Both the position numbers and the translations under genes were made by a program. A stretch of 64,000 nt of DNA from a virus, in the IMG/VR virus record IMGVR_UViG_3300046047_000262; one strand, written 5' to 3'. The notes beneath the pieces are model-generated. The model was not told the origin of the DNA. It searched no databases and worked only from the letters and a program-made list of their open reading frames with translations. Below are positions 1 to 12,366 of the stretch, piece after piece. The first letter of the stretch is position 1; each line of letters starts with the position of its first letter.

Positions 1-40
1 CATTACGAGTGAGACGCTCTACCGACTGAGCTATGGGGGC
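1..40 (-). tRNA. tRNA-Thr(CGT), 3' half cut by window edge
   Basis: GCCCCCA-TA-GCTC D arm; anticodon loop CT-CGT-AA. Confidence 0.85.
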
Positions 41-69
41 ATGATACCATCATCTTGATGCTATCCACG

Positions 70-152
70 TGTCGTCAGAGGGAATCGAACCCTCAAGTCC
101 TAGGACACGGCGTTCTGAACACCGCACGTTTACCTGATTTCGTCATGACGAC
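70..152 (-). tRNA. tRNA-Leu(CAG)
   Basis: Cloverleaf, loop TT-CAG-AA, long V-arm, GGTTCGATTCC, A73. Confidence 0.9.
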
Positions 153-156
153 AATG

Positions 157-231
157 TAGCTCCATTGGGACTCGAACCCAAACCTTATGATTGAAAGTCA
201 TATATGCGCGGACCAAGCACACTGTGGAGCC
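157..231 (-). tRNA. tRNA-Glu(TTC)
   Basis: TATGA/TCATA stem, loop CT-TTC-AA, T arm GGTTCGAGTCC; D arm divergent. Confidence 0.8.
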
Positions 232-402
232 ATAAATGGATACCACTAGTACCATAGTGGCATCCATGGACGTAGCCATCGGACATGTCCATGGATGATG
301 TATAAGTTCATGCATACATGTTCATAATGTATTACACGACACGGTATTGGTACGACCGTATCATCATTATGATCCTTGTCCGATTCCTGCAGGTAGGCCA
401 CG

Positions 403-478
403 TGGTGCCCACGGTCGGACTCGAACCGACAACCCTCAGTTTAGGAAACTGATGCTCTATCCATTGAGCTACGTAGGC
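403..478 (-). tRNA. tRNA-Arg(CCT)
   Basis: Loop TT-CCT-AA, A20, encoded CCA. Confidence 0.95.
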
Positions 479-487
479 AATGATTAC

Positions 488-516
488 ATGATACCATGTT
501 CCGCCGATGATGTCAA
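488..516 (-). promoter_or_regulatory. sigma70-type promoter internal to the tRNA array
   Basis: Minus strand TTGACA-17 nt-(TGG)TATCAT just upstream of tRNA-Arg(CCT). Confidence 0.7.
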
Positions 517-525
517 TATGAATCG

Positions 526-598
526 TGCCCCGGATGGGATTCGAACCCACAACCTACTGATTAGAGGTCAGTCGCTCTATCCATTGAGCTACCAAGGC
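526..598 (-). tRNA. tRNA-Arg(TCT), C33
   Basis: ACTGA/TCAGT stem, loop CC-TCT-AA, A20. Confidence 0.92.
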
Positions 599-630
599 AT
601 ATACTAAAGATGATCATAGCAAGGTCATCA

Positions 631-706
631 TGGTGCCTCTGACAGGATTCGAACCTGCAACGCCTGGTTCCGAGGACCAGCGCTCTATCCATTGAGCTAC
701 AAAGGC
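631..706 (-). tRNA. tRNA-Arg(TCG), C33
   Basis: Loop CC-TCG-GA, A20, encoded CCA. Confidence 0.92.
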
Positions 707-707
707 G

Positions 708-781
708 TGCCCATAATCGGATTCGAACCGATAACCTTCTGTTCCGTAGACAGACGCTCTATCCAATTGAGCTATATGGGC
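708..781 (-). tRNA. tRNA-Arg(ACG)
   Basis: Loop CT-ACG-GA, A20. Confidence 0.95.
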
Positions 782-793
782 ATGATGATGAAG

Positions 794-880
794 CGGATAG
801 TGCGGGATTCGAACCCACGGATCTCATAGAAGATCACGATCTTTCCAAGATCGCTCATTCGACCACTCTGACAACTATCC
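794..880 (-). tRNA. tRNA-Ser(GGA)
   Basis: Loop TT-GGA-AA, long V-arm, G73. Confidence 0.93.
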
Positions 881-1085
881 AAGTATGATAGAACGTTTGC
901 ACTTGCCGGCATGAAACCGACAGTGCGTAGCCCGAGTCACAGATTATGGGTCTGTACCGAACACGTTCTAATCCAGATAAAGCCCTGATCCTATGATTGT
1001 CTTCAATCCTCATAGGAAGAACAATGATCTGTTTCTCATGATGTGAGCATGATAGTGAAGCCTACCGATGTTCTCACCATGATAG

Positions 1086-1172
1086 CGGGTGGAGTGGGAG
1101 TCGGACCCACGGTGGTGTTACCCACACTGGTTTAGCAAACCAGTCAGCATTCACCGAATTGCAATTCCACCC
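1086..1172 (-). tRNA. tRNA-Ser(GCT)
   Basis: Loop TT-GCT-AA, V-arm, G73; T loop variant TCCGACT. Confidence 0.85.
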
Positions 1173-1204
1173 ATGAACAGTAATCATTATACCATGAATA
1201 CTCG

Positions 1205-1290
1205 CGGAGTGTAAGGGAATCGAACCCCTAACCGGATTAACGGCATCCGTTTTCAAAACGGAGCGGACTTGCCAATAGCCCACACACTCC
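1205..1290 (-). tRNA. tRNA-Ser(TGA)
   Basis: Loop TT-TGA-AA, V-arm, G73. Confidence 0.9.
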
Positions 1291-1329
1291 ATGGAGAACC
1301 CCCATCACCACCATACGATGATGACAGGG

Positions 1330-1404
1330 TGGTACAGGTCAAGGGAATCGAACCCTAGGAATCGATCATGTAAGTATCGTCCCCGTTCCTGATAACGGAC
1401 CTGT
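1330..1404 (-). tRNA. Atypical tRNA-like gene, nominal anticodon TAC (Val)
   Basis: Perfect acceptor ACAGGTC/GACCTGT plus ACCA and a T loop; D arm abuts the acceptor with no U8-A9; loop CT-TAC-AT. Confidence 0.55.
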
Positions 1405-1569
1405 TGACATGTCTCAAGATCATGCTTCAAAGTAAGTACCACCAATCCGCCGATATCATGATGCGTTCTCTAGAATCAGCATCATGATCGTTGAGTATCG
1501 ACCGGTGGTATCCGATGGCATCTTCGCAACGACGAATGCTTCCACTGATCAAGTGGCATCGAATTATCG

Positions 1570-1642
1570 AGCGGGCAACGGGATTCGAACCCGCGGTCTC
1601 AACCTTGGCAAGGTCGCGCTTTACCAACTAAGCTATGCCCAC
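1570..1642 (-). tRNA. tRNA-Gly(GCC)
   Basis: Loop TT-GCC-AA, U73. Confidence 0.93.
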
Positions 1643-1668
1643 ATTATGGTATCAGCATTGATACCAAG

Positions 1669-1742
1669 TGCTCCCAAGTGGATTCGAACCACTGACTTCA
1701 TCTGCGTGAGAGATGCGATCTACCGGACTGATCTATAGGAAC
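1669..1742 (-). tRNA. tRNA-Val(CAC)
   Basis: Loop CT-CAC-GC, A73. Confidence 0.9.
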
Positions 1743-1744
1743 GG

Positions 1745-1821
1745 GTGCGGGAGAGGGATTTGAACCCCCAACAACATGCTTATGAGGCACGAGAGCTACC
1801 GAGTTGCTGCTTGATCCCGCG
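1745..1821 (-). tRNA. tRNA-Met(CAT), initiator-like
   Basis: CGCGGG start with C1:A72 mismatch, loop CT-CAT-AA; lacks the three G-C anticodon-stem pairs. Confidence 0.8.
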
Positions 1822-1862
1822 TGGATAATCAGGAATCGAACCTGAACGTGTACCATATACCC
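1822..1862 (-). ncRNA. 41-nt acceptor+T-arm minihelix with G3:U70 and A73
   Basis: GGGTAT-ATGGTACACGT-TCAGG TTCGATT CCTGA-TTATCC-A. Confidence 0.5.
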
Positions 1863-1868
1863 TGTTAA

Positions 1869-1944
1869 TGGTTCTCCGAGCTGGATTCGAACCAACACTA
1901 TTCCGTTCCAGAGACGGATGCATTGCCAGTTATGCTATCGGAGA
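1869..1944 (-). tRNA. tRNA-Gln(CTG)
   Basis: U1:A72, loop CT-CTG-GA, encoded CCA. Confidence 0.92.
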
Positions 1945-1976
1945 ATACACTTGGAATCATGATGACACCAAGTCCG

Positions 1977-2047
1977 AGCGGATGACGGGAATCGAACCCG
2001 TTCCGAATGCTTGGGAAGCATCCGTGCGACCACTACACCACATCCGC
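1977..2047 (-). tRNA. tRNA-Gly(CCC)
   Basis: GCGGATG acceptor, loop TT-CCC-AA, U73. Confidence 0.93.
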
Positions 2048-2072
2048 AATGATATGCTAATATCAAGTTAAG

Positions 2073-2143
2073 CTGCCCATGCTGGGATCGAACCAACGTT
2101 AAGAGTTCCAAAGACTCCCGTCTTGCCATTAAACGAATGGGCA
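2073..2143 (-). tRNA. tRNA-Gln(TTG)
   Basis: U1:A72, loop CT-TTG-GA, G73. Confidence 0.92.
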
Positions 2144-2308
2144 ATACATGGTTTTGGTTACCAGACCATGAACTGGCTTAGCTAACCCTAAGTACACACT
2201 TTCAATCAAGAAAGCTTCCCGTATCGCGTTTAAGTTGCTGTCTTCGCGCGCATCCCACAGATGAACTGCCTATCGGTTGGGGTTGTGGACTCGATAGTGA
2301 GGGAACCG

Positions 2309-2352
2309 TGATGCAGAGGGATTCGAACCCTCGATAAGCCTTATCCTGCATC
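2309..2352 (-). ncRNA. 44-nt mini-tRNA (acceptor, one hairpin, T arm)
   Basis: GATGCA-G-GATAA GGC TTATC-GAGGG TTCGAAT CCCTC-TGCATC-A; all stems perfectly paired. Confidence 0.6.
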
Positions 2353-2363
2353 CTACTACATCG

Positions 2364-2434
2364 AACTGGTGATCGGAGTCGAACCGACTTACACTGTTTT
2401 GCAGACAGCTACCTGGCCGTTTGGTTACACCAGC
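2364..2434 (-). tRNA. tRNA-Cys(GCA)
   Basis: Loop CT-GCA-AA, U73. Confidence 0.9.
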
Positions 2435-2480
2435 ATAGTACTCTCAACGTGCAGAGTACATGACAACATCTGTTATCAAG

Positions 2481-2551
2481 AGGCTCACCAGAGAATCGAA
2501 CTCTGATCGCTTGTTTACAGGACAAGTGCTCTCCCATTGAGCTAGTGAGCC
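2481..2551 (-). tRNA. tRNA-Thr(TGT), C33
   Basis: CTTGT/ACAAG stem, loop CC-TGT-AA. Confidence 0.88.
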
Positions 2552-2595
2552 ATATGTGTATATTATAACACATCTCTCAGACAAAATATACCACG

Positions 2596-2666
2596 AGCGG
2601 ATGACGGGAATCGAACCCGCATAATCAGTTTGGAAGACTGACATTCTACCATTGAACTACATCCGC
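2596..2666 (-). tRNA. tRNA-Gly(TCC)
   Basis: Loop CT-TCC-AA, U73. Confidence 0.95.
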
Positions 2667-2898
2667 ATCAATTATCATCGTCCCGCACCGGGGACGTCCA
2701 TACGCATACGAACCCGTGTGTATACTACGATGCCTTGTACGGGGCATCGTGTGGGTACATCACGAAATTCATTGTTGTATTGCACATGTTTTCCCTATCA
2801 TCACCATGAGCTCAGGTAATCATTCACATTGCAGGTCGACTCTACACGGATGATCACTGCTCATGGGTACTTTCAGACTCACAGGTAGTACGATAACG

Positions 2899-2971
2899 TG
2901 GAGACGATGGGTATCGAACCCACTACCTTCTCGATGCTAACGAGATGCTCTACCAATTGAGCTACGTCCCC
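2899..2971 (-). tRNA. tRNA-Ala(AGC), A34
   Basis: GGGGACG/CGTCTCC with G3:U70, A73; loop TT-AGC-AT. Confidence 0.92.
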
Positions 2972-3175
2972 AAAATGATCGATTATGAGTGATCATAACC
3001 GATCCATGTATCAGGAGAGCAACCTCATCATGATTATTGCATACTTCTTCGTATGCTCGTCAAGCGGTCCAAGCAGAGCAAAGAACCCAATCATTGTTGA
3101 CACTGGAAGCCCTATTGGCCACATCCTGAAACAGATGATACACCACACGTAGTACTACGTGATTCATCTACCATC

Positions 3176-3249
3176 GTGAATGACATGGGATTCGAACCCA
3201 TGATCTCTTACATTACCGTAAGCGCTCCTACCAATTGAGCTTCCATTCA
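3176..3249 (-). tRNA. Atypical tRNA with 6-nt anticodon loop, identity undetermined
   Basis: Good D and T arms; CTTAC-GGTAAT-GTAAG anticodon arm. Confidence 0.6.
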
Positions 3250-3383
3250 ACCAATCATTGAAAATCCTTTATAGCACAGGACAATCGATCATCTGGTTAT
3301 GTTATACAAGGGCACTATGATTCTGATAGAACCATGCTCTCATAAGAACCGTATTTGATGACTGTTATCATACTACGGTATCG

Positions 3384-3459
3384 TCGTGGAGGATGGATTT
3401 GAACCATCAACCTCATGGATATGAATCATGCGCTCTAACCTGACTTGAGCTACCCCACG
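3384..3459 (-). tRNA. tRNA-Met(CAT), elongator-like
   Basis: Loop TT-CAT-AT, C1:G72, A73. Confidence 0.85.
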
Positions 3460-3478
3460 ATAAGTATGATCATGATAG

Positions 3479-3551
3479 TGGAGACAATGGGATTCGAACC
3501 CACCACATTCTCCGTGCGAGGGAGAATCGCCGCCCAGGAACATGTGTCCCC
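3479..3551 (-). tRNA. tRNA-Ala(CGC)
   Basis: G3:U70, A73; loop CT-CGC-AC; unusual D arm. Confidence 0.85.
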
Positions 3552-3564
3552 ATGATGCATACCG

Positions 3565-3636
3565 TGGATACATGAGGGATTCGAACCCTCACCTTCTCCG
3601 TGCAAAGGAGATGTGCTACCATTGACACTAATGACC
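3565..3636 (-). tRNA. tRNA-Ala(TGC) with irregular acceptor stem
   Basis: Loop TT-TGC-AC; acceptor GGTCAT/ATGTATCC is bulged. Confidence 0.75.
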
Positions 3637-3643
3637 AGTATCG

Positions 3644-3727
3644 TTGTGCGTGAGGGATTCGAACCCCCGTACTTTCAATAAGAACTGGGTTACGGCCAGT
3701 CGCATTTAACCACTCTGCCAACGCACA
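3644..3727 (-). tRNA. tRNA-Tyr(GTA), C33, U1:A72
   Basis: Loop CC-GTA-AC, V-arm, A73. Confidence 0.85.
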
Positions 3728-3859
3728 ATAGTATCAAGATTGATGTGATCATGTTCCCATCCTTGATACATATGGGAGCATGCTTACAATAGGATTTACA
3801 GGTAGGTTAACCTATGAGCTACAAACCCATTATCCCTCCTACCACACCTATTGCAAACG

Positions 3860-3946
3860 CGGTCGATGAGGGATTCGAACCCCCGATAGGCTTTCACCTA
3901 TACTTGTTTTCAGGACAAGCTCCATAAGCCACTCGGACAATCGACC
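3860..3946 (-). tRNA. tRNA-Ser(TGA), C33
   Basis: Loop CC-TGA-AA, V-arm, G73; paralog of 4249-4335. Confidence 0.9.
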
Positions 3947-4144
3947 AAGCAGGATAAGTCTGCCGTTTCGACTCATCCTCGTATCATGTTACAGTAGCAT
4001 TATAATCCACTGGTGTGAACGGGAATTACTGCATGTATTCGTTCACATTGACAGCAAAGCGTATACACCTTGCTGTCATAATGGTTGCAATCCTTGATGG
4101 CATAACGGCGACACCAAGGATTTCACTGCTGTTGTAAGCATGAG

Positions 4145-4219
4145 TGCCGTTGTAGGATTCGAACCAACGATCTTCTGATTCGGGAGGTCAGATGCTCTAT
4201 CCAATTGAGCTATAACGGC
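4145..4219 (-). tRNA. Arg-type tRNA with 9-nt anticodon loop (CCG/CCCG)
   Basis: A20 Arg body like 708-781; TCTGA-CCTCCCGAA-TCAGA. Confidence 0.75.
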
Positions 4220-4248
4220 AATGGTGATAGTCAGAATTACTATCATCG

Positions 4249-4335
4249 CGGTTGATGAGGGATTCGAACCCCCGATAGGTTTTCACCTATGCTTGTTTTC
4301 GAAACAAGTTCCTTCAACCACTCGGACAATCAACC
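4249..4335 (-). tRNA. tRNA-Ser(CGA)
   Basis: Loop TT-CGA-AA, V-arm, G73. Confidence 0.93.
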
Positions 4336-4356
4336 ATAATTATCAATATGATAACG

Positions 4357-4429
4357 TTGGACTATCGGGAATCGAACCCGAATCTATGGTGCCACAGACC
4401 ATCGCTCTAACCGTTGAGCTATAGACCAC
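4357..4429 (-). tRNA. tRNA-His(GTG), G-1 opposite A73
   Basis: Loop CT-GTG-GC. Confidence 0.85.
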
Positions 4430-4676
4430 ATAGGTCACACGATTCAAGCCATCATGTGACCAGTTTAACGTCATGAGACGTATTATTGTATAGGGTGAAT
4501 GGTATGCCCATTCTTGATGCTCCAATCCTTTATGTATGAACGTGTGGTTATATCCATACAGGTATTGGAGATGTTCCGCCAACCAGATGACGCCTGGCCA
4601 CGCACCACTGAGACTTGATGGTGATGAGATCCCACTACACGAGTGAATAGCTTATGCCTACAACGTGTGATCATCG

Positions 4677-4750
4677 TGCCGACAGTCCGGGTCGAACGGA
4701 CAACCTCAGAGGCTTCAACTCTGCGCTCTCGCCAATTGAGCTATGACGGC
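4677..4750 (-). tRNA. tRNA-Phe(GAA)
   Basis: Loop TT-GAA-GC, A73. Confidence 0.9.
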
Positions 4751-5004
4751 ATAAACGGGAAGCTTTTCGGTCTTGTACTTCAACTATCATCGCTTCCCTT
4801 CAGTATTCCAACTGCTGATACCATATGACGATGGTATCATTGTTCACATTGAATGAGTGTGAACAATCACAGGGTTTATCGCTCGGTACGATGCTCCTAC
4901 ACCCTATAGACAGTCATTCTTATCGGCGTTATGACTACGTGCGTGATTACCTTATCCTATCGTCATGATGTCACTCATAACGGTGATCCCGCTTTATTAC
5001 CCAG

Positions 5005-5075
5005 TGTCTTAAGAGAATTATGATATCTCGCATACTTGCTTCTATCCAAGTGCTCTTCCTCTGAGCTATTAAGAC
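5005..5075 (-). tRNA. Atypical tRNA: Lys-type body, 8-nt anticodon loop, ATCATAA T loop
   Basis: GTCTTAA/TTAAGAC acceptor; D arm identical to Lys 8241 and 8991; ACTTG-GATAGAAG-CAAGT. Confidence 0.6.
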
Positions 5076-5160
5076 ATTTTCAGTCGGATGGATCGTCAAT
5101 CCATCGTTACGGTTGTTCCTACCGTGGTCTTATATAATGACTTTAGCCTACGACTGAACG

Positions 5161-5244
5161 TGCATCCGACCTGACTCGAACAGGCAAGTCCATGATGGAC
5201 GATGGTTCCTAGGACCATTGTGTTTACCATTTCACCACGGATGC
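5161..5244 (-). tRNA. tRNA-Leu(TAG), C33
   Basis: Loop CC-TAG-GA, V-arm, A73. Confidence 0.9.
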
Positions 5245-5249
5245 ATGTG

Positions 5250-5323
5250 TGCCCACAAGAGGGCTTGAACCTCTGACCTTGGAATTATGAGTTCCGCGCT
5301 CTGACCGACTGAGCTATGCGGGC
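5250..5323 (-). tRNA. tRNA(CAT), Ile2- or Met-type
   Basis: Loop CT-CAT-AA; third CAT tRNA in the array. Confidence 0.85.
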
Positions 5324-5462
5324 ATTAATGGCGGCTTTCCCGCTAGCACGATGTTCTCATCGAACGAGCAACGACATTGTACGGGCATAACAACCTGAGT
5401 TGATTAAGTTAATAACCACTTGAGCCAGGTTGACCTTGAGGCGACTGTTGCCATACCCCTCG

Positions 5463-5526
5463 TAGTCTCACGAGGAATCGAACCTCGTCGTTTGATGGAA
5501 CCTCAGGAATACTACCAATTGAGACC
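5463..5526 (-). ncRNA. 64-nt shrunken tRNA with the tRNA-Glu acceptor stem
   Basis: GGTCTCA/TGAGACT-A identical to Glu(CTC) at 7496; intact T arm; D and anticodon arms reduced. Confidence 0.55.
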
Positions 5527-5534
5527 ATTTTAGA

Positions 5535-5653
5535 CCTAAGTGAGTGAGATGCGACTGCTTTTTCAATGCTGCACTACCAATCCCCACGGAGATTGAGCGG
5601 GATTCGAACCCGCAAGGACTTAGTTATTGTCCACCACTTGCCACTCACTCAGG
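5535..5653 (-). ncRNA. YrlA/Y-RNA-like RNA with a circularly permuted tRNA domain
   Basis: 12-bp terminal stem enclosing V-arm, T arm (GCGGG TTCGAAT CCCGC), loop-closed acceptor hairpin, TA, D-like arm. Confidence 0.65.
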
Positions 5654-5721
5654 ACTGGAATCCGTATTAGGACACCAGCAGAAATGATTATAGGAGTAAC
5701 TAATTCCAATCATTACCTACG

Positions 5722-5805
5722 CGGATGATGCGGGGGTCGAACCCGCCACGGTATTACCCTAACCTCATTAGCAGTGAGGCGCTTTAGCCGCTCAGCCTAC
5801 CATCC
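5722..5805 (-). tRNA. tRNA-Ser(GCT)
   Basis: Loop CT-GCT-AA, V-arm, G73. Confidence 0.9.
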
Positions 5806-5989
5806 ATTGTTTTTCAAACAGCTCCAAGAGGAACAGATTGATTTATTATTGAGTTACAGATCCATAATGTCGTGTATTGTCAATGTATCCTAACATTGAC
5901 ACGAGGTGGCCTTCCCCCGAACCTTGATGGACGACACCATCAAGGTTTCCAACATGATCATACGTTCATGCCGCCAATTCCACGACTAG

Positions 5990-6041
5990 AGTCTCAAAGA
6001 GGAATCGAACCTCAACATGCACACGGCATGGTCATCCAGAC
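5990..6041 (-). ncRNA. 52-nt D-armless mini-tRNA
   Basis: GTCTGGA/TTGAGAC acceptor with one mismatch, CATGC-CGTGT-GCATG hairpin, GAGG TTCGATT CCTC. Confidence 0.45.
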
Positions 6042-6159
6042 TGAATCCCAACGAGTGTAATCTCGTTAGAGCATCGAAAGTCTTCGATACACCAACATCC
6101 GCATTAGGGTTCGTCCCCCCTCCTCACCCAGTCGACACTGGTTGAGGTCAGATATTGCG

Positions 6160-6231
6160 CGACCACGACGGGAGTCGGACCCGCTGTCCTCTCCTCGACA
6201 GGGAGATGCCTGACCGTCAGGCTCCGTGGCC
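6160..6231 (-). tRNA. tRNA-Asp(GTC)
   Basis: Loop CT-GTC-GA, G73, T loop variant TCCGACT. Confidence 0.85.
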
Positions 6232-6405
6232 ATATGATTCTGGTGGGACTGGTGTACCTATCTAGGGTCATAGACCAATAGGTACGCGAATCCTGATCAC
6301 CAGCAAGTAATGCGGATGATTGCCTGCCGTGGCTACAGCAGTCATCACGTCTAGCGAGCCGTGCGTCATGTTTCCATCACGTATATGACCGTTTCAACGA
6401 TTGCG

Positions 6406-6461
6406 TGGAGCGGCACGGATTCGAACCGTGCTTCGGGTATAGGTTCGAATGAATCCACCCC
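6406..6461 (-). ncRNA. 56-nt tmRNA-TLD-like Ala-identity mini RNA
   Basis: GGGGTGG/CCGCTCC-A with G3:U70; stemless D loop; TTCG/CGAA hairpin; CACGG TTCGAAT CCGTG. Confidence 0.6.
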
Positions 6462-6615
6462 GCATTTCTGGCTCGGGATAACCAATCCCAAGCACTATTG
6501 AACCAATATGATGACCAGCAGAATGGTTAACCTCTACTATTCACCATCAAACACCCCTATCACATGATCCTGTCACCATTCACATGTAAGCATACGGAAT
6601 ATAACCATATACCAG

Positions 6616-6689
6616 TACCTTCTACGGGATTCGAACCCGTACTAAACAGTTCCTTAGACTGTCGCCTCTACCAATTGGGCTAAGAAGGC
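6616..6689 (-). tRNA. tRNA-Leu(AAG), A34, no long V-arm
   Basis: Loop CT-AAG-GA; 5-nt variable loop; Leu-type D arm; A73. Confidence 0.88.
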
Positions 6690-6747
6690 AAAGACTGGTC
6701 GATCATATTGGATCAACCAGTTCTAGAGCATCTCATTCGACGACTCG

Positions 6748-6830
6748 TACCCCCACTCGGACTTGAACCGAGATTCCTTGCGGAAACCGCTTTTGAGGCG
6801 GTCGTGTCTACCAATTCCAACCATAGGGGC
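6748..6830 (-). tRNA. tRNA-Leu(CAA)
   Basis: Loop CT-CAA-AA, V-arm, A73. Confidence 0.93.
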
Positions 6831-6833
6831 GGG

Positions 6834-6917
6834 GTGTACAACGGGACTCGAACCCGCATGGGATAACTCCCATCAGGGTCACAACCTGATGTCGCAAACC
6901 ATATCGACCTTGTACAC
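6834..6917 (-). tRNA. tRNA-His(GTG) with long V-arm
   Basis: G-1:C73, loop TT-GTG-AC, V-arm TGGGA-GTTA-TCCCA. Confidence 0.85.
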
Positions 6918-6919
6918 AG

Positions 6920-6992
6920 CGACCACGACCGGAATTGAACCGGTGACCTCTTGCGTGACAAGCAAGCGTTCTTACCCCTGAACTACGCGGCC
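6920..6992 (-). tRNA. tRNA-Asp(GTC)
   Basis: Loop TT-GTC-AC, G73. Confidence 0.93.
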
Positions 6993-7196
6993 ATATCATC
7001 CTTTACGGAGATGAATTGAGATGGCACTCAATCTAGTATCCCATGCCATCACCGCAGGGTTCGTCGCCCCCTGATTAAACGTGCAACGATGATAACCATC
7101 ATTATCAGCGCTTCCTGATGATCCGACTCATTCTCACTAAACGCTGATTAGACTATTTGAATGAGCTATGTGATATCAATATGTACTCACGTTGCG

Positions 7197-7268
7197 AGCC
7201 TTGACTTAGAATCGAACTAAGATCAACTGCTTACTAAACAGTCGCACGAACCATTGTGCTATCAAGGC
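7197..7268 (-). tRNA. tRNA-Thr(AGT), A34
   Basis: GCCTTGA acceptor, loop TT-AGT-AA. Confidence 0.9.
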
Positions 7269-7327
7269 ATTCATAGTATTCCGAAACATGTAATCACGTA
7301 TTGGAATGTTAATATGGAAAAGATTAG

Positions 7328-7398
7328 TGCCCCATCCGGGAATCGAACCCGGTTCTGACCCTCCACGGGCCTGTTCTAACCAGTGTCACTAATGGGTT
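7328..7398 (-). tRNA. Degenerate or atypical tRNA (nominal TGG)
   Basis: Intact T arm; GGCCC-GTGGA-GGGTC anticodon arm; frayed acceptor end. Confidence 0.45.
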
Positions 7399-7405
7399 GT
7401 TAATC

Positions 7406-7486
7406 CTGATGGCATCAGGTAATTAGGCTGATGACATCAGAGAACGTTCCTTTGGTATCATCGGGTAATTAGGCCGACGATACACC
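7406..7486. repeat. Two hairpins sharing the loop GTAATTAGG
   Basis: catcag-gtaattagg-ctgatg and catcgg-gtaattagg-ccgacg. Confidence 0.7.
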
Positions 7487-7495
7487 GGACCTCCG

Positions 7496-7568
7496 TAGTC
7501 TCAGCGGGAATCGAACCCGCAATCTTCTCCTTGAGAGGGAGACGAGGTAACCGTTGCTCTATGAGACC
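7496..7568 (-). tRNA. tRNA-Glu(CTC)
   Basis: Loop CT-CTC-AA. Confidence 0.92.
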
Positions 7569-7829
7569 ATAAGTCATGGCTGATAGTTCCATGACTGTAT
7601 CATGGTACTCCATGAACGAGACTGTTCTCAGTCAGCGAGGATAGTGTTTATAGAACCTGAGGTATGGTTTAACTAACCCACAGTAACAGGCAGTTGACTT
7701 CTACTCCATCAATACGATATTCCATCCAATTCGATGTGATGTTGAAGCGTGCGACGAGGAACCCGATGTCCCATGGTTATCAATCATGGTCCGCTATTTC
7801 CACTATTAGTGGCTGCACGATGACACACG

Positions 7830-7884
7830 TGGAATTATGGGAATCGAACCCATGACCATGCTGTTAGCAGGGCACCATGTTTCC
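7830..7884 (-). ncRNA. 55-nt D-armless mini-tRNA containing CTGCTAA
   Basis: GGAA/TTCC-A ends, ATGGG TTCGATT CCCAT T arm, single central arm. Confidence 0.45.
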
Positions 7885-7905
7885 TGTCAACAAGTGTTGA
7901 CAAAG

Positions 7906-7976
7906 TACGCCCACCAGGAATCGAACCCAAGTCAAGAGGTTTGGAAGCTCTTGTGTTACCACTACACCATAGGCGT
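7906..7976 (-). tRNA. tRNA-Trp(CCA), A73
   Basis: Loop TT-CCA-AA with C31:C39 mismatch. Confidence 0.8.
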
Positions 7977-8039
7977 ATGTTGACGTTCCCTATGTGTGGT
8001 CGCGTCATGATGATGTATAAGCAAGATCGTTGCTTATCG

Positions 8040-8120
8040 TGGTGCATGGGGGACTCGAACCCTCGAACCCTGTGGGAGCTGGTTTACAGCCAGCCGCAAT
8101 TGCCGCTATGCGAATGCACC
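8040..8120 (-). tRNA. tRNA-Tyr(GTA)
   Basis: G1:C72, loop CT-GTA-AA, V-arm, A73. Confidence 0.92.
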
Positions 8121-8148
8121 ATAAAGGTGGGTCAATGCGTTATACTCG

Positions 8149-8215
8149 CGTACATTGGGGAATCGAACCCCGCTGTTTGAAGAGTTTCACTTCACTTTGA
8201 TCCGGACACCAGTCC
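8149..8215 (-). pseudogene. tRNA-like remnant
   Basis: T arm GGGG TTCGATT CCCC, TGAAG/CTTCA arm, GGAC-TGGT-GTCC D-like arm; no pairing acceptor found. Confidence 0.35.
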
Positions 8216-8240
8216 AAAACCGAGCTGCAGATCGGTTTCG

Positions 8241-8312
8241 TGCCTCAGGAGAATTATGATATCTCGACCCTCTGTTTAAGAGACAGATGCTCTTCCTCTG
8301 AGCTACTAAGGC
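8241..8312 (-). tRNA. tRNA-Lys(CTT) with ATCATAA T loop
   Basis: Loop CT-CTT-AA; T arm GAGAT-ATCATAA-TTCTC. Confidence 0.85.
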
Positions 8313-8313
8313 G

Positions 8314-8385
8314 TACGGGTAGATAGAATTGAACTATCCTTTCTTCTGTATCAGAGAAGTGTTCTAACCGATGAACTATACCCGT
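8314..8385 (-). tRNA. tRNA-Ile(GAT)
   Basis: Loop CT-GAT-AC, A73. Confidence 0.88.
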
Positions 8386-8494
8386 AAACGAACGGCTCCC
8401 TCTCAAAGTCATTGCTCCTCGTTTTAGAACAAACATTATGAGGGGGTTACCGGGCAGACTGTCTCTCGACTAAAGCTGGTTGCCAACAACTCAG

Positions 8495-8577
8495 TGCCCT
8501 TACTCGGACTCGAACCGAGACTCCTTACGGAAGCCGATTTTAAGTCGGCCGTGTCTACCAATTCCAACCATAAGGGC
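8495..8577 (-). tRNA. tRNA-Leu(TAA)
   Basis: Loop CT-TAA-AA, V-arm. Confidence 0.93.
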
Positions 8578-8582
8578 ATTCG

Positions 8583-8712
8583 GAGTACGTATCGGAATTG
8601 AACCGGTATACGTGGTGCGCTTAACCAATACCCACGAATATGAATATCTTCATATCACGTAGGCGCTGGAATTGGACCAGATCATCACGCACCACGCCAG
8701 ACCACTCGTACC
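8583..8712 (-). ncRNA. Double-elbow tRNA-mimic RNA
   Basis: Open acceptor plus T arm joined by a perfect 9-bp helix to a second T arm plus loop-closed acceptor. Confidence 0.6.
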
Positions 8713-8794
8713 TTCCTACCAGATTCGGTAAGACTTGGAAAGATGCATCATTCCAAGCATTATGAGACATTATACTAGTATTTCTCATAACCTG

Positions 8795-8876
8795 TGCCTC
8801 TACTCGGACTCGAACCGAGACTCCTCACGGAAACTGATTTTAAGTCAGTCGTGTCTACCAATTCCACCATAAAGGC
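8795..8876 (-). tRNA. tRNA-Leu(TAA), second copy
   Basis: Loop CT-TAA-AA; paralog of 8495 and 6748. Confidence 0.93.
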
Positions 8877-8990
8877 ATAATGTGAGCATCGCACTCACAA
8901 GGTTGCTATAGCGTTCGGCTCATTAGTGGTCACAACTAACCATGATAGTACTTAAACTATGCTGCTAACTCAAAGCCTACTGATACTGCG

Positions 8991-9062
8991 TGCCCCCGGA
9001 GAATTACGATATCTCGACACGCGGATTAAAAGTCCGCTGCTCTTCCTCTGAGCTACAAGGGC
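8991..9062 (-). tRNA. tRNA-Lys(TTT) with ATCGTAA T loop
   Basis: Loop CT-TTT-AA; T arm GAGAT-ATCGTAA-TTCTC. Confidence 0.85.
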
Positions 9063-9152
9063 ATGATGTTGACGATTGTACACTTGCCAACAGGTTTGCG
9101 TGATATATTCGCTTATCGCGGGTAGACGCATCTACCTGATAACCATGAGAAC

Positions 9153-9266
9153 AAGATGTACGAGGAATCGAACCTCGGTCGCCGACCCTGGCAATGAAGG
9201 AGTCGAACCTTCCACAGGATGGGTCTAACATCCTGTCTGACCTACCATAACAGTCAGCATACATCT
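9153..9266 (-). ncRNA. 114-nt tRNA-like RNA with two T arms (nominal anticodon AGA)
   Basis: AGATGTA/TACATCT acceptor; 5-bp D stem; 8-bp anticodon stem; two GG-TTCGA-NT-CC arms. Confidence 0.65.
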
Positions 9267-9290
9267 CAACATTGTTCTCACATGTCATCG

Positions 9291-9379
9291 CTGGTCTAGC
9301 AGGAATCGAACCTGCGATACCCTTTTACGGGATTCTGACGCATTAACAGTGCGTTGGCATGCCGCTTGCCGATAGACCA
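9291..9379 (-). tRNA. tRNA-Asn(GTT) with long V-arm
   Basis: U1:A72, G73, loop CT-GTT-AA; about 20-nt variable region with CCC-GTAAAA-GGG. Confidence 0.85.
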
Positions 9380-9695
9380 ATAAGTACGGGATCTTACCGT
9401 TCCTCAATGATACTCTTCTCAATACCATTAACCATGTATACCTGCGATAATAGGAGTTAATCACTGTAAGCATTTGATGCTTCGGATATGTTCCATAGTG
9501 TATGCGATGTGTCCTACGCGAGATGCAGCATAGATGCACGGTTCACATAGATTATCGGACAAGCCATACTCCGTTAATCGTATTGATGAGATATGACAAG
9601 GTGGTCACAGGGCACCTACACCTCGTCATTGCACGCGGTTATCAATGATAACCATGTAAGCCATTGGTGTCCCTTAGCTTACATTATGCGTACCG

Positions 9696-9766
9696 TGCTC
9701 CCACGGGGAATCGAACCCCGATTTACTGATTAAGAGTCAGCAGTTCTACCGTTGAACTATAGAAGC
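9696..9766 (-). tRNA. tRNA-Lys(CTT)
   Basis: Loop CT-CTT-AA, canonical T loop. Confidence 0.92.
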
Positions 9767-9966
9767 AAAAACCCGTATGACCCTTTGAGGGTAACTCACT
9801 CTCAAACTAGAATGGGTCATACGGGAAAATCACCAAACAAAGGAGAAGGATCGAACCTTTCCTAGCAAAAACCGTATGACCGTTTGAGGACAACTCGCTC
9901 TCAAACTGGAAATGGGTCATATGGTAAATAATACGCTAACAAAGGAGTACTGTGCCTTGCCCTAGC
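9767..9966. repeat. Two tandem 100-nt structured repeats (candidate sRNAs)
   Basis: Units 9767-9866 and 9867-9966 share the CCGTATGACC...TTTGAG..CTCAAA...GGTCATA hairpin, AACAAAGGAG and CCTAGC. Confidence 0.85.
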
Positions 9967-10008
9967 ATACCAAACCGCATATGCTTCTGCCGTATTGCTA
10001 CGACATAG

Positions 10009-10079
10009 CTCCCCGAGAAAGAATCGAACTTTCATTAAATGATTAACAGTCATCCGTTCTGCCCTTGAACTACCGGGGA
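10009..10079 (-). tRNA. tRNA-Asn(GTT)
   Basis: TCCCCGG acceptor, G73, loop CT-GTT-AA. Confidence 0.92.
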
Positions 10080-10087
10080 ATAAAGAT

Positions 10088-10566
10088 GCCGGTGATAACG
10101 CTCACCGGCGGGCGGCATGGTTGATACCTTGATGAGATCATGCTGTTCTCATCATTGGTCAGGATCATTCGTCCTGATTGGTCAGCTCTCATGCCATCAT
10201 GATGACTGGTATGATTGCGTATGTGATTCATCTGAAGAAACTTTTTTAATGACTACGGGCCGTCAGTGTTTCATGAATGACGTTGGTGTCCCGCTCATGG
10301 GTTATCATCGCGTGCTCGGAATACAATGTAATCCTCGTCAGGTGTTGCCACCATCGGTTGTAAGGGCGATGTCTTCCCCATGCTCGATCCTGTGTTCAGG
10401 CGCTCCGTCACGTGCTCACATGGTGACCAAACACGATAATTCTTTAACATTCCGGTATCGTGACCGTCGCATACATCTCCCGCAGTAATGAACTGCCATC
10501 CTCGTTAAGTTATGTGACCATCCTATCGTGACTTGCCTTGGTTGTCAACCTCGGCGTGTCGCGATG
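10088..10566. ncRNA. Candidate large structured RNA(s)
   Basis: About 480 nt with no credible ORF, packed with nested hairpins. Confidence 0.4.
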
Positions 10567-10582
10567 ACCTCGATGATCATCG

Positions 10583-10656
10583 TCGGCTATGTCAGATTCG
10601 AACTGACGGTCTCCTGCTCCCAAAGCAGGCGGATTACCAAGCTTTCCTAATAGCCG
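10583..10656 (-). tRNA. tRNA-Pro(TGG)
   Basis: CGG start, loop TT-TGG-GA, A73. Confidence 0.92.
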
Positions 10657-10732
10657 TTATCTTTTCAATTTTTGTTTCCGATGAACCAGTGTATCATAAT
10701 CTTTCGATTACGCAACATCGGCGTGTCGGTCG

Positions 10733-10804
10733 TCGGAATGGACTGGTTCGAACAGTCGTTCTCCTGCACCCGAAGCAGGCGGATTACCACTTTCCTACAT
10801 CCCG
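10733..10804 (-). tRNA. tRNA-Pro(CGG)
   Basis: CGG start, loop TT-CGG-GT, A73. Confidence 0.92.
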
Positions 10805-10824
10805 TTACATTCTTCAATTATACA

Positions 10825-10859
10825 CTGAGCCCCGAATCCTTTAAGGGTCCGGGGCTCAG
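10825..10859 (-). terminator. Strong GC hairpin ahead of the first tRNA (terminator or attenuator)
   Basis: CTGAGCCCCG...CGGGGCTCAG inverted repeat. Confidence 0.55.
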
Positions 10860-10881
10860 AACATCTGATGTGTAATCACAC

Positions 10882-11028
10882 TTACACGATAAGCCCCACT
10901 CTCATGGGATAACCGAAATCTTGAATTGTATTATTCTGCAAGGACCATGACACTGGTTTCAGACATGGGAGCATGGCTGAACGCTTAATGTCATTACGAT
11001 GTATCATACTTGATTGTAACGATCTCAT
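10882..11028 (-). CDS. 48-aa leader ORF (MRSLQSS...MRVGLIV)
   Basis: GGAAGGAG Shine-Dalgarno 6 nt before ATG, directly downstream of a consensus promoter; below the ORF-track cutoff. Confidence 0.55.
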   Translation of the reverse strand: MRSLQSSMIHRNDIKRSAMLPCLKPVSWSLQNNTIQDFGYPMRVGLIV

Positions 11029-11066
11029 AGCCAACTCCTTCCTTCATGTCCACTTGCCTGATACTT

Positions 11067-11095
11067 ATTGTACCACACAATATCAACGTTTGCAA
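11067..11095 (-). promoter_or_regulatory. Array promoter P2
   Basis: TTGCAA-17 nt-TACAAT with extended TGTGG. Confidence 0.8.
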
Positions 11096-11147
11096 AACAA
11101 TCTAACAAATTCTTTTTTTCAACTCGTACTGATGAGCTTGTAATATC

Positions 11148-11175
11148 ACTATACCACATAATATCAGTATGTCAA
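11148..11175 (-). promoter_or_regulatory. Array promoter P1
   Basis: TTGACA-16 nt-TATAGT with extended TGTGG; sequence paralogous to P2. Confidence 0.8.
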
Positions 11176-11244
11176 AACAATATCACCATTATTTTTCGAT
11201 TATTCTGATAACACCCGATAACCATTGGTATACCAGCGTTCCCA

Positions 11245-12366
11245 TCATCTCTGTAACATGACTATGGTCTTCAATACCGCGAGTTCAAGGAACGGTTTGC
11301 CATCAGGTGCCCACACCATGTTCTGCATCGCCTCACCAAGGAACCCGAATGCTCTGACCAGTTTCTCATTACCCGTGTCCTGAGCGATCTTCCTGTGGTT
11401 CTTGAATAACAGCATATCATTCTCGCTTTCCTCATTATTCGCAAGGAACAGCATGCTCCTGGTATCGTTGAGCAGATTCTGAATGAGCGTCTTGGGATCA
11501 TCCCCGTCCACAATGGCATCATTGATGACCTTGAATGCGTTGATGACATCACGCTGCTCATATACCGCCCTGGTCAGATCGATACTATGATTGACTGGGA
11601 TCTCACCAGTGGACAGGATGCGTTCCAATGTGGACAATGTTTCCCTTACGGAACCACCGCTTGAACTGACACCACCGGCTTTGATGACTTGTAGTATCTG
11701 GTTCTTCGATATCCTGTGATCCTTTACCAGATCGGTCGCATCCTCTTTGGATATGCCGTACCCTTCGGATTTGCATACATTCATACACAGGTTACCAAGA
11801 TCCTTGACCGATACCAGATGGAACGCCCTGTTCTGGATTCTTGATGTCAATGTCGTCGGCATGGCGTTGACATTCGTGGTACACATGATGAACAACGAGT
11901 TCACATGCTCATCCTCCAACGGTATCAGTAATGAATCGTAAGCGATCTTCGATAGGTTATGCACCTCATCGAGAATCCATACTGGTCTATTGACGCCATC
12001 GGCGGCTCGTCGTGACTGATCGACGATTCTACGGACATCCTCCACTGAACCGTTATTCGCCATGGATAGGTAATGGACACCAAGATTGGTTCCATCATCG
12101 ATACTGGTGCATACATCACATACGTTACATGGTTCACCATCATCGGTGAGATGTTGACAGTTCACTGCTTTCGACATGATCTTCGCCACACTGGTCTTAC
12201 CCGTTCCACGGGGTCCTGCGAAGATGTACGCATCCGCAAGCCTGTGATTGATCACGGCGTTCCTGAGATCATTGACGACAGCATCCTGTCCTATGACTTG
12301 GCTCCATGTCCGAGGACGATACTTCTTGTATAGTTCGATATGTTTAGTGTTATCATTTGTGGTCAT
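11245..12366 (-). CDS. dnaX: DNA polymerase III clamp loader gamma/tau-like (short form)
   Basis: LYKKYRP, GPRGTGKT, Zn module C..PCNVCDVC, ILDEVH. Confidence 0.93.
   Translation of the reverse strand: MTTNDNTKHIELYKKYRPRTWSQVIGQDAVVNDLRNAVINHRLADAYIFAGPRGTGKTSVAKIMSKAVNCQHLTDDGEPCNVCDVCTSIDDGTNLGVHYLSMANNGSVEDVRRIVDQSRRAADGVNRPVWILDEVHNLSKIAYDSLLIPLEDEHVNSLFIMCTTNVNAMPTTLTSRIQNRAFHLVSVKDLGNLCMNVCKSEGYGISKEDATDLVKDHRISKNQILQVIKAGGVSSSGGSVRETLSTLERILSTGEIPVNHSIDLTRAVYEQRDVINAFKVINDAIVDGDDPKTLIQNLLNDTRSMLFLANNEESENDMLLFKNHRKIAQDTGNEKLVRAFGFLGEAMQNMVWAPDGKPFLELAVLKTIVMLQR

Follow-up and report, generated by a model that had tools for sequence, protein, structure and literature searches.

Background

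So far, tagless tmRNAs have been described in a single named phage and in a few organelles. The RNA of mycobacteriophage DS6A has been classed as 'TLD only', TLD being the tRNA-like domain (PMC4131195); it is entered in the tmRNA Website as tmID 11587 and occupies 28478-28557 of JN698994.1 (1479-1558 of our locus L082). A DS6A-like TLD, whether it can be charged or not, is described as a strong inhibitor of tmRNA, perhaps by titrating SmpB (PMC4131195; PMC11915505), and the first of these papers credits the inhibition to Mao et al. 2009. Given this precedent, the idea of an inhibitor or SmpB sponge, which a sequence-only reading had proposed for the locus studied here, is not new. Tagless mitochondrial tmRNAs and plastid tmRNA genes of about 65 bp are also known (PMC11915505). 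These CDS-less tmRNAs belong to the mitochondria of jakobids and oomycetes and to the plastids of Mallomonadaceae (~65 bp) (PMC11915505, PMC3985003), and the jakobid RNAs are covered together with the recognition of G3:U70 by AlaRS in PMC3985003. Full-text searches of the open literature turned up neither a plasmid-borne tagless tmRNA nor one that lacks helix 2; such cases may exist in subscription papers, in supplements or in the tmRNA database itself.

How does the present locus compare with these systems? It lies in a 64,000-nucleotide stretch of DNA from a viral collection (IMG/VR record IMGVR_UViG_3300046047_000262), which was analysed as a whole and is called the window below. By its sequence the gene is a tagless (TLD-only) tmRNA of the DS6A type that misses two typical features. 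Like the DS6A RNA, it is one piece in standard order, tagless, with G3:U70, A73 and a T arm, with U-C-G-A in a stemless D region, and it sits unannotated in the record of a mobile element. The DS6A RNA, however, is 80 nt long with a D-loop GG and a helix-2 hairpin and lies between siphovirus protein genes, whereas the gene has 56 nt and neither feature and is embedded among the array tRNAs of a plasmid-like element that carries transfer genes. It shares its ends and plan with the unannotated phage TLD-only mini-tmRNAs reported below, at the short end of their range of 53-79 nt. The organellar CDS-less tmRNAs have likewise lost the tag frame and kept the TLD, but each is the only tmRNA of its organelle (with a nucleus-encoded SmpB in oomycetes), while the gene is accessory; the host cell presumably carries a full tmRNA of its own. 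The tagless type is already known from DS6A, and the gene has been cut down further.

Features of the gene

The gene was located on the minus strand at 6406-6461, with 56 nt up to the discriminator, or 59 nt with CCA completed. The letters and coordinates of the sequence-only reading were correct, and the G3:U70 pair, A73 and stemless D region that it had named are all present. The acceptor stem has its 5' strand at 6455-6461 (G3 = 6459); its 3' strand, the discriminator and the trailer take up 6404-6413 (U70 = 6409, A73 = 6406). All seven of its pairs form; two of them are wobbles, G3:U70 (6459:6409) and U5:G68. CCA is not encoded, and C-G (6405-6404) follows directly 3' of the discriminator. 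The T arm (6414-6430) has five of five pairs and the 7-nt loop UUCGAAU. Between acceptor and T arm there are 24 nt, and the two TLD halves are joined in one piece, in standard order and with no tag reading frame. Position 8 is A, not U, and the D stem and the anticodon arm are absent from 6406-6461. On the same strand, the 24-nt middle starts with a shortened 5' part of the D loop (6451-6454), which holds A8 and no G, so that the GG of the family is missing. Next comes the A-UUCGA motif (6445-6450, placed by model alignment), the SmpB-contact part of the D loop, equivalent to positions 15-20 of E. coli tmRNA. An 11-nt stretch (6434-6444), in which the family helix is impossible, replaces helix 2 and the entire mRNA-like domain, and the 3-nt linker AAG (6431-6433; family consensus GAY) keeps the middle A, the equivalent of A334. 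Upstream, a hairpin is predicted in the leader (6471-6493), ending 9 nt before G1.

The fold drawn in the sequence-only reading included a UUCG/CGAA stem. A 4-bp stem of this kind is possible; it is marginal (-1.0 kcal/mol alone) and it is not the family helix 2, for UUCGA is unpaired in the family alignment and helix 2 begins after it. The minimum-energy fold is a rod of -23.1 kcal/mol, as against -18.2 kcal/mol for the fold drawn earlier. In the rod, the T loop is paired with nine D-region bases and the T stem has a probability of 0.002, in a fold model that takes no account of tertiary contacts or T-loop modifications; both folds contain G3:U70 (P 0.997). The exact complement between D region and T-loop region has 9 bases here and at most 7 (median 4) in 86 relatives, and because of it the predicted fold of the naked RNA is a rod without T arm. 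The T stem is retained in the predicted fold of 54 of 80 relatives.

Detection and alternative identities

Neither ARAGORN nor Rfam at the gathering score made a call at 6406-6461, and no model of the tmRNA clan matched there in an E-value scan of Rfam. The jakobid and oomycete mitochondrial tmRNAs make up the Rfam family mt-tmRNA. The sole match of the E-value scan at the gene was mascRNA (20.1 bits, E 3.5), and membership in mascRNA-menRNA (RF01684) fails against a gathering cut-off of 42.5 bits. Could the combination of an Ala-type acceptor and a T arm have arisen by chance? It occurs twice in the 64-kb window, the second match presumably being a tRNA-Ala, and in none of 100 dinucleotide shuffles. 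The fold z-score of the gene is -3.19.

Several other identities were considered and rejected. A standard tmRNA (RF00023) is excluded by the length of 56 nt, by the lack of an mRNA-like domain and by the lack of an ARAGORN or Rfam call; a two-piece (permuted) tmRNA is excluded by the standard gene order and the absent helix-2 strand. A separate tmRNA coding piece, for which the sequence-only reading had suggested a search, was not found in the 64-kb window, and a pattern for a tag-like frame end had no match in 1-11250 on either strand. The many permuted tmRNA calls that relaxed ARAGORN makes across the window at low thresholds were rejected as noise, and an Rfam tmRNA fragment at 5597-5613 is a T arm only. 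A canonical tRNA-Ala (RF00005) is excluded by A8, by the absent D stem and by a loop that varies between strains. A decoding role was rejected as well, since the UGC in the loop of the sister strain described below is off-centre and absent from the window copy.

Comparison with the TLD-only family

Exact and near patterns of the gene gave no matches in viral contigs and none in metagenome contigs. Blastn of the gene against phages and plasmids returned chance or T-arm-sized matches only, and blastn with one relative (L016) against phages returned T-arm or 3'-end matches only, several of them to full tmRNAs. Relatives were found with a generic pattern of four G, GA, UUCGA, a T loop and an Ala-type 3' end within about 80 nt. 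It gave 78 loci in viral contigs, of which 77 have a full acceptor and every one a full T stem, and the paired positions include pairs that the pattern leaves free. There were 12 loci in genome contigs, 7 of them fully paired, and 51 in metagenome contigs, where short forms only were sought and all have a full T stem. From 87 distinct pattern matches, 6 failed a pairing filter and were dropped before features were counted; the distinct relatives after filtering number 80 and measure 53-79 nt. With a UUGA motif, 18 further distinct intact TLD-only RNAs were found. A loose pattern without UUCGA gave at least 120 loci; most of these were the 3' portions of ordinary tRNAs, and the pattern was left out of all counts.

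A covariance model, R1, was built from 25 relatives of equal D-region length. In this alignment 98.6% of the cells pair, and both sides change in 10 of the 17 pairs, including all five of helix 2. The gene is the best R1 match in the window (34.8 bits, E 3.5e-5), about 11 bits above a tRNA-Ala with 23.5 bits, and the other short T-arm elements in the array reach at most 22 bits. This supports the claim of the sequence-only reading that the locus is a tmRNA tRNA-like domain without mRNA domain. The score is also low for the family: 40 matched relatives score 36.3-69.9 bits, all above the gene, and the DS6A RNA scores 48.3 bits.

Which features have been lost and which have been kept? The gene has what marks the DS6A type in its 7-bp acceptor with G1-C72, G2-C71, G3:U70 and A73, its canonical T arm, its A8 with a stemless D region ending in U-Y-G-A and its lack of a tag; the D-loop GG and the helix-2 stub beside a GAY linker are missing, and the gene is therefore a variant and not a typical member. 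The GG is found in 75 of the 80 relatives, none of which is wholly without G there; the gene, with no G before UUCGA, stands alone in this among 81 family sequences. Helix 2 has its first pair in 78/80 relatives and at least three pairs in 73/80, against no pair in the family register for the gene, which is one of three family sequences without the first pair. In the GAY linker, the first G is present in 71, the middle A in 78 and the last pyrimidine in 72 of the 80 relatives, where the gene has AAG. An extra acceptor G-U like that of the gene, and a length of 56 nt or less, are each seen in 3/80 relatives.

These losses bear on the binding of SmpB. By cryo-EM, A15, U17, G19 and A334 of tmRNA are SmpB contacts (PMC8363625). 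When assigned by model alignment and the E. coli numbering, the equivalents of all four are present in the gene (6450, 6448, 6446 and 6432, respectively). The D-loop GG makes D-loop/T-loop contacts. According to a review, D-loop/T-loop contacts are required for SmpB binding (PMC3968760). With the GG and helix 2 gone, binding of SmpB is probably weaker than for DS6A-type RNAs; judged by analogy it is uncertain, and less secure than the sequence-only reading implied.

Well-formed TLD-only genes were also seen in bacterial genome contigs, namely L086 and L091 (Opitutales MAG) and L090 (Saccharibacteria MAG), and within 13-gene tRNA clusters in L093 and L094 (Christensenella MAGs). The genes of these five contigs are probably on prophages or islands. 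Viral contigs further contain elements of 41-59 nt with an Ala-type acceptor and a T arm and without UUCGA: L214 (3001-3041), L232, L245, L152 (3001-3057) and L169/L202/L265. The L214 element (41 nt) lies in a tRNA array, and that of L152 at most 3 kb from an ARAGORN tmRNA call.

Conservation in a sister strain

DNA of the element is present in sludge bioreactor metagenome runs, and a sister strain, essentially one other haplotype, was found in runs X4 and X5. The X4 contigs across 6405-6473 have eight differences from the window and no gap, six in the gene (6436, 6438, 6441, 6447, 6449 and 6450) and two in the leader. A single contig of X5 spans 6322-6473; it is recorded with three of the six gene changes and with a total of 21, which agrees with the X4 haplotype. 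The acceptor, T arm and discriminator have 0/32 changes in the sister strain, against 30/180 substitutions plus gaps in the flanks (p 0.010), while the middle has changed at 6/24 positions, which differs from the stems (p 0.004) and not from the flanks (p 0.39; all Fisher tests with the 32-nt stem set). The T arm is identical across contigs of runs X1, X2, X4 and X5. At the 3' end, 6403 differs from the window in two strains and 6404-6406 are unchanged.

Within the A-UUCGA motif, 6450, 6449 and 6447 have changed in the sister strain and 6448, 6446 and 6445 are kept. The changes thus hit the equivalents of 15, 16 and 18, which vary among the relatives, and spare 17, 19 and 20. The sparing is suggestive: for three of six positions such a distribution is expected by chance in about 1 in 20 cases, but it comes from one haplotype. 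Positions 17, 19 and 20 were fixed by the search patterns, and their tally among the relatives is no evidence of invariance; U17, G19 and A20 are also present in DS6A and in five full tmRNAs, which were found without those patterns. The equivalent of A15, one base of the SmpB pocket, differs in the sister strain, while those of U17, G19 and A334 are kept in both strains, that is, three of the four SmpB contacts. The hexamer of the sister strain is also found in 4 of the 18 distinct intact TLD-only RNAs (L325, L327, L330 and L334), and A at position 16 is also seen in the full tmRNAs of the related elements G001 and G002.

The predicted folds were followed by hand. In the sister strain the small UUCG/CGAA stem loses one pair and gains one, two of the nine fold-back pairs of the rod are broken and one has turned into G-U, and, with its loose-end letters, the leader hairpin (6471-6493) still appears to form. 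Over 4500-8500, runs X1, X2, X4 and X5 show several diverged strains of the element, some with a rearranged array order.

Genomic context and origin

The gene lies inside a tRNA array of about 11 kb, with 47 ARAGORN genes at 69-10804, all on the minus strand, spaced every 100-400 nt and extending past the window start. At the array head there is a strong sigma-70-type promoter-like site (11148-11175, minus strand, 11/12 with TG), which is a consensus match only, 16 such sites having been found where 10.7 are expected. A C-G trailer like that of the gene is seen in 26 of 44 scored array tRNAs, and an encoded CCA in 3 of them; the gene thus ends like its neighbours. The ORFs of the window include DnaX, NAD ligase, a sigma factor, a GyrA/ParC-like subunit and a TraD-like coupling protein, together with a VirB11/TadA ATPase, topoisomerase I, a class C sortase and pilin-like proteins. 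Among 47 of the 52 ORFs (five below 100 aa excluded), no capsid, terminase, SmpB, AlaRS or aminoacyl-transferase family was found with NCBIfam or Pfam. The best plasmid tRNA matches are to megaplasmids of Bifidobacterium, Curtobacterium and Pseudarthrobacter. From its genes and tRNAs, the source appears to be a giant plasmid-like element that is likely actinobacterial.

Where did the gene come from? We searched 13 related or array-bearing records, 10 of the viral collection found via DnaX and 3 actinobacterial plasmids. A full tmRNA is present in 5 of them, including G001 and G002, which have the closest DnaX; the first tRNAs in the array of G001 are Pro(CGG), Pro(UGG) and Asn(GUU), the same as in the window. 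A TLD-only gene was found with R1 in none of the 13, two weak matches being rejected as overlapping ordinary tRNA-Ser and tRNA-Leu genes, and ARAGORN and Rfam found no full tmRNA in the window. With full tmRNAs in 5/13 records and tagless ones in none, the gene is probably a reduced form of the element's own tmRNA. This is the simplest origin, the alternative being a phage mini-tmRNA captured by the element; a full gene may still lie in the element beyond the window. For megaplasmid pMP7017, a full tmRNA beside a tRNA array is described as highly transcribed (PMC10832533). The full tmRNAs of megaplasmids and giant elements (pMP7017, W01-W03, G001 and G002) resemble the gene in their place in or near a plasmid tRNA array and in their G7-A8 start, and 3 of 5 end with A-C-G, as the gene does. 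Those of actinobacterial megaplasmids and giant elements differ from the gene in being 356-392 nt long with tags of 12-13 residues, where the gene has 56 nt and no tag; compared with them, some 300 nt are gone from it, among them the tag, the pseudoknots and helix 2. SmpB is present in one of five records tested; a Curtobacterium megaplasmid (L348 in W02, CP018784.1 492257-492682) has a full tmRNA and smpB on one plasmid record.

Possible function and rival explanations

What might such an RNA do? In the scenario that we prefer, the mRNA domain was lost from a full tmRNA like that of the related elements. The array transcript would be cut at the 5' end of the gene by RNase P and its 3' end trimmed and completed with CCA, as tRNA biology suggests for the neighbours, and AlaRS would charge the processed RNA through G3:U70. 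Alanylation is likely, provided that the gene is expressed, in view of its anatomy and its conservation in the sister strain. By analogy with DS6A, SmpB would be bound at the elbow of D loop and linker. The bound RNA could damp trans-translation of the host or give a stalled chain one untagged alanine; for SmpB binding together with either outcome, we would put the chance somewhat below even. In competing with the host tmRNA for SmpB, which it may do weakly, the RNA would add no degradation tag. The reading as a whole, a reduced, array-processed and alanine-charged tagless tmRNA that competes for SmpB, is offered tentatively and falls a little short of an even chance: the lost GG and helix 2, the non-consensus linker, a middle changing at the flank rate, the altered A15 equivalent, the low R1 score and the rod fold count against it, as does the lack of a homolog of the exact form in the pattern searches. 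Since the array holds several other shrunken T-arm elements, the retention of the gene may simply be a trait of the array as a whole.

Three other explanations were weighed against this reading. The gene may be a vestige of a tmRNA that is kept only as a processing signal in the array transcript, in the fashion of mascRNA, with the freed RNA doing little. RNase P and the 3'-end enzymes recognise just such a unit of acceptor stem and T arm, and a vestige of this kind would therefore act as a cut site. The pattern of conservation, limited to acceptor, T arm and C-G trailer with a middle drifting like the flanks, agrees with this explanation, as do the structured spacers on both sides of the gene and the roughly eight other short T-arm elements of the array. 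However, G3:U70, A8 and the SmpB-contact bases would be superfluous for a cut site and yet are kept in both strains, the tRNAs of the array already provide sites every 100-400 nt, and the gene is alone among the short elements in fitting the TLD model well (34.8 against at most 22 bits); we consider this explanation somewhat unlikely. The RNA may instead be an alanine minihelix that acts independently of SmpB, supplying non-ribosomal transferases with alanine or serving as a decoy for AlaRS, for EF-Tu or for toxins that target acceptor stems. In favour of this, G3:U70, through which it would be charged, is in every predicted fold (P 0.997), the elbow features GG and helix 2 are lost, and very short Ala-type elements without UUCGA do exist in viral contigs, such as the 41-nt one of L214. 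It is an unlikely role, however, for no aminoacyl-tRNA transferase, AlaRS or SmpB family was found in 47 of the 52 ORFs, alanine could be supplied by the two canonical tRNA-Ala genes in the window, and the spared motif positions point to SmpB.

The last explanation is a neutral relic, a decaying piece of tmRNA or tRNA-Ala, or a fold-back that obtained its UUCGA from its own T loop by template switching. In its favour are the 9-base complement of D region and T loop, larger than in all 86 relatives (maximum 7), the low R1 score and the failure to find a distant homolog of the exact form in viral or metagenome contigs. Against it, the stems show 0/32 changes beside diverged flanks (p 0.010); the sister strain breaks fold-back pairs and yet reaches a motif variant of intact relatives; and A8 with a missing D stem fits tmRNA, not tRNA-Ala. 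A neutral relic is quite improbable. A stronger version of the preferred reading is that the 59-nt RNA is a minimal tmRNA mimic derived from the conjugative giant element's own tmRNA, which would be alanylated, would grip SmpB with neither helix 2 nor GG, and would serve against tagging. We doubt this version; if it is true, a plasmid-borne RNA switches off or de-tags the trans-translation of its host and is the smallest SmpB-binding scaffold.

Why does the reduced tmRNA matter? Standing at the margin of the family, it is in effect a deletion mutant supplied by nature, in which alanine identity and three of four SmpB contacts are kept in two strains while GG and helix 2 are gone. Together with the sister-strain allele and the DS6A RNA it would form a series for the requirements of SmpB, in which a decoy, a tagless rescuer and a mere alanine acceptor could be told apart. 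With it, a giant plasmid-like element joins the phages as a carrier of the tagless type, and the full tmRNAs of related elements suggest a route from full to tagless.

Other elements of the array

The spacers on both sides of the gene, 6232-6404 and 6462-6614 (minus strand), each have several predicted hairpins, with -54.8 and -47.4 kcal/mol in a calculation that had no shuffle control; they could be unannotated RNAs released by processing of the mini-tmRNA. Shrunken or D-armless T-arm elements of 40-64 nt, missed by ARAGORN, were seen on the minus strand at 2308-2353, 1822-1862, 5463-5526, 5589-5651, 5990-6041, 7830-7885 and 9188-9247, and several of them end with A-C-G like the array tRNAs. 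The element at 1822-1862 has a short acceptor of the G3:U70 type. That at 9188-9247 has a stem of 7-8 bp with AGA in the loop and is nested in a 114-nt helix (9153-9266).

The array tRNAs include some with A34 anticodons, which are rare in bacteria: Leu(AAG), Thr(AGU) and Ala(AGC) at 6615-6689, 7196-7268 and 2898-2971, respectively. The tRNAs of G001 include Leu(AAG), Thr(AGU), Ala(AGC), Ser(AGA) and Ser(ACU). At 3566-3642, 3177-3248, 1745-1821, 7327-7398 and 1333-1404 there are full-length tRNA-like genes whose arms are damaged or unusual; the odd-armed types are Ala(UGC)-like with a broken acceptor, Thr(GGU)-like, initiator-like and Pro(UGG)-like, and one has a long anticodon arm.
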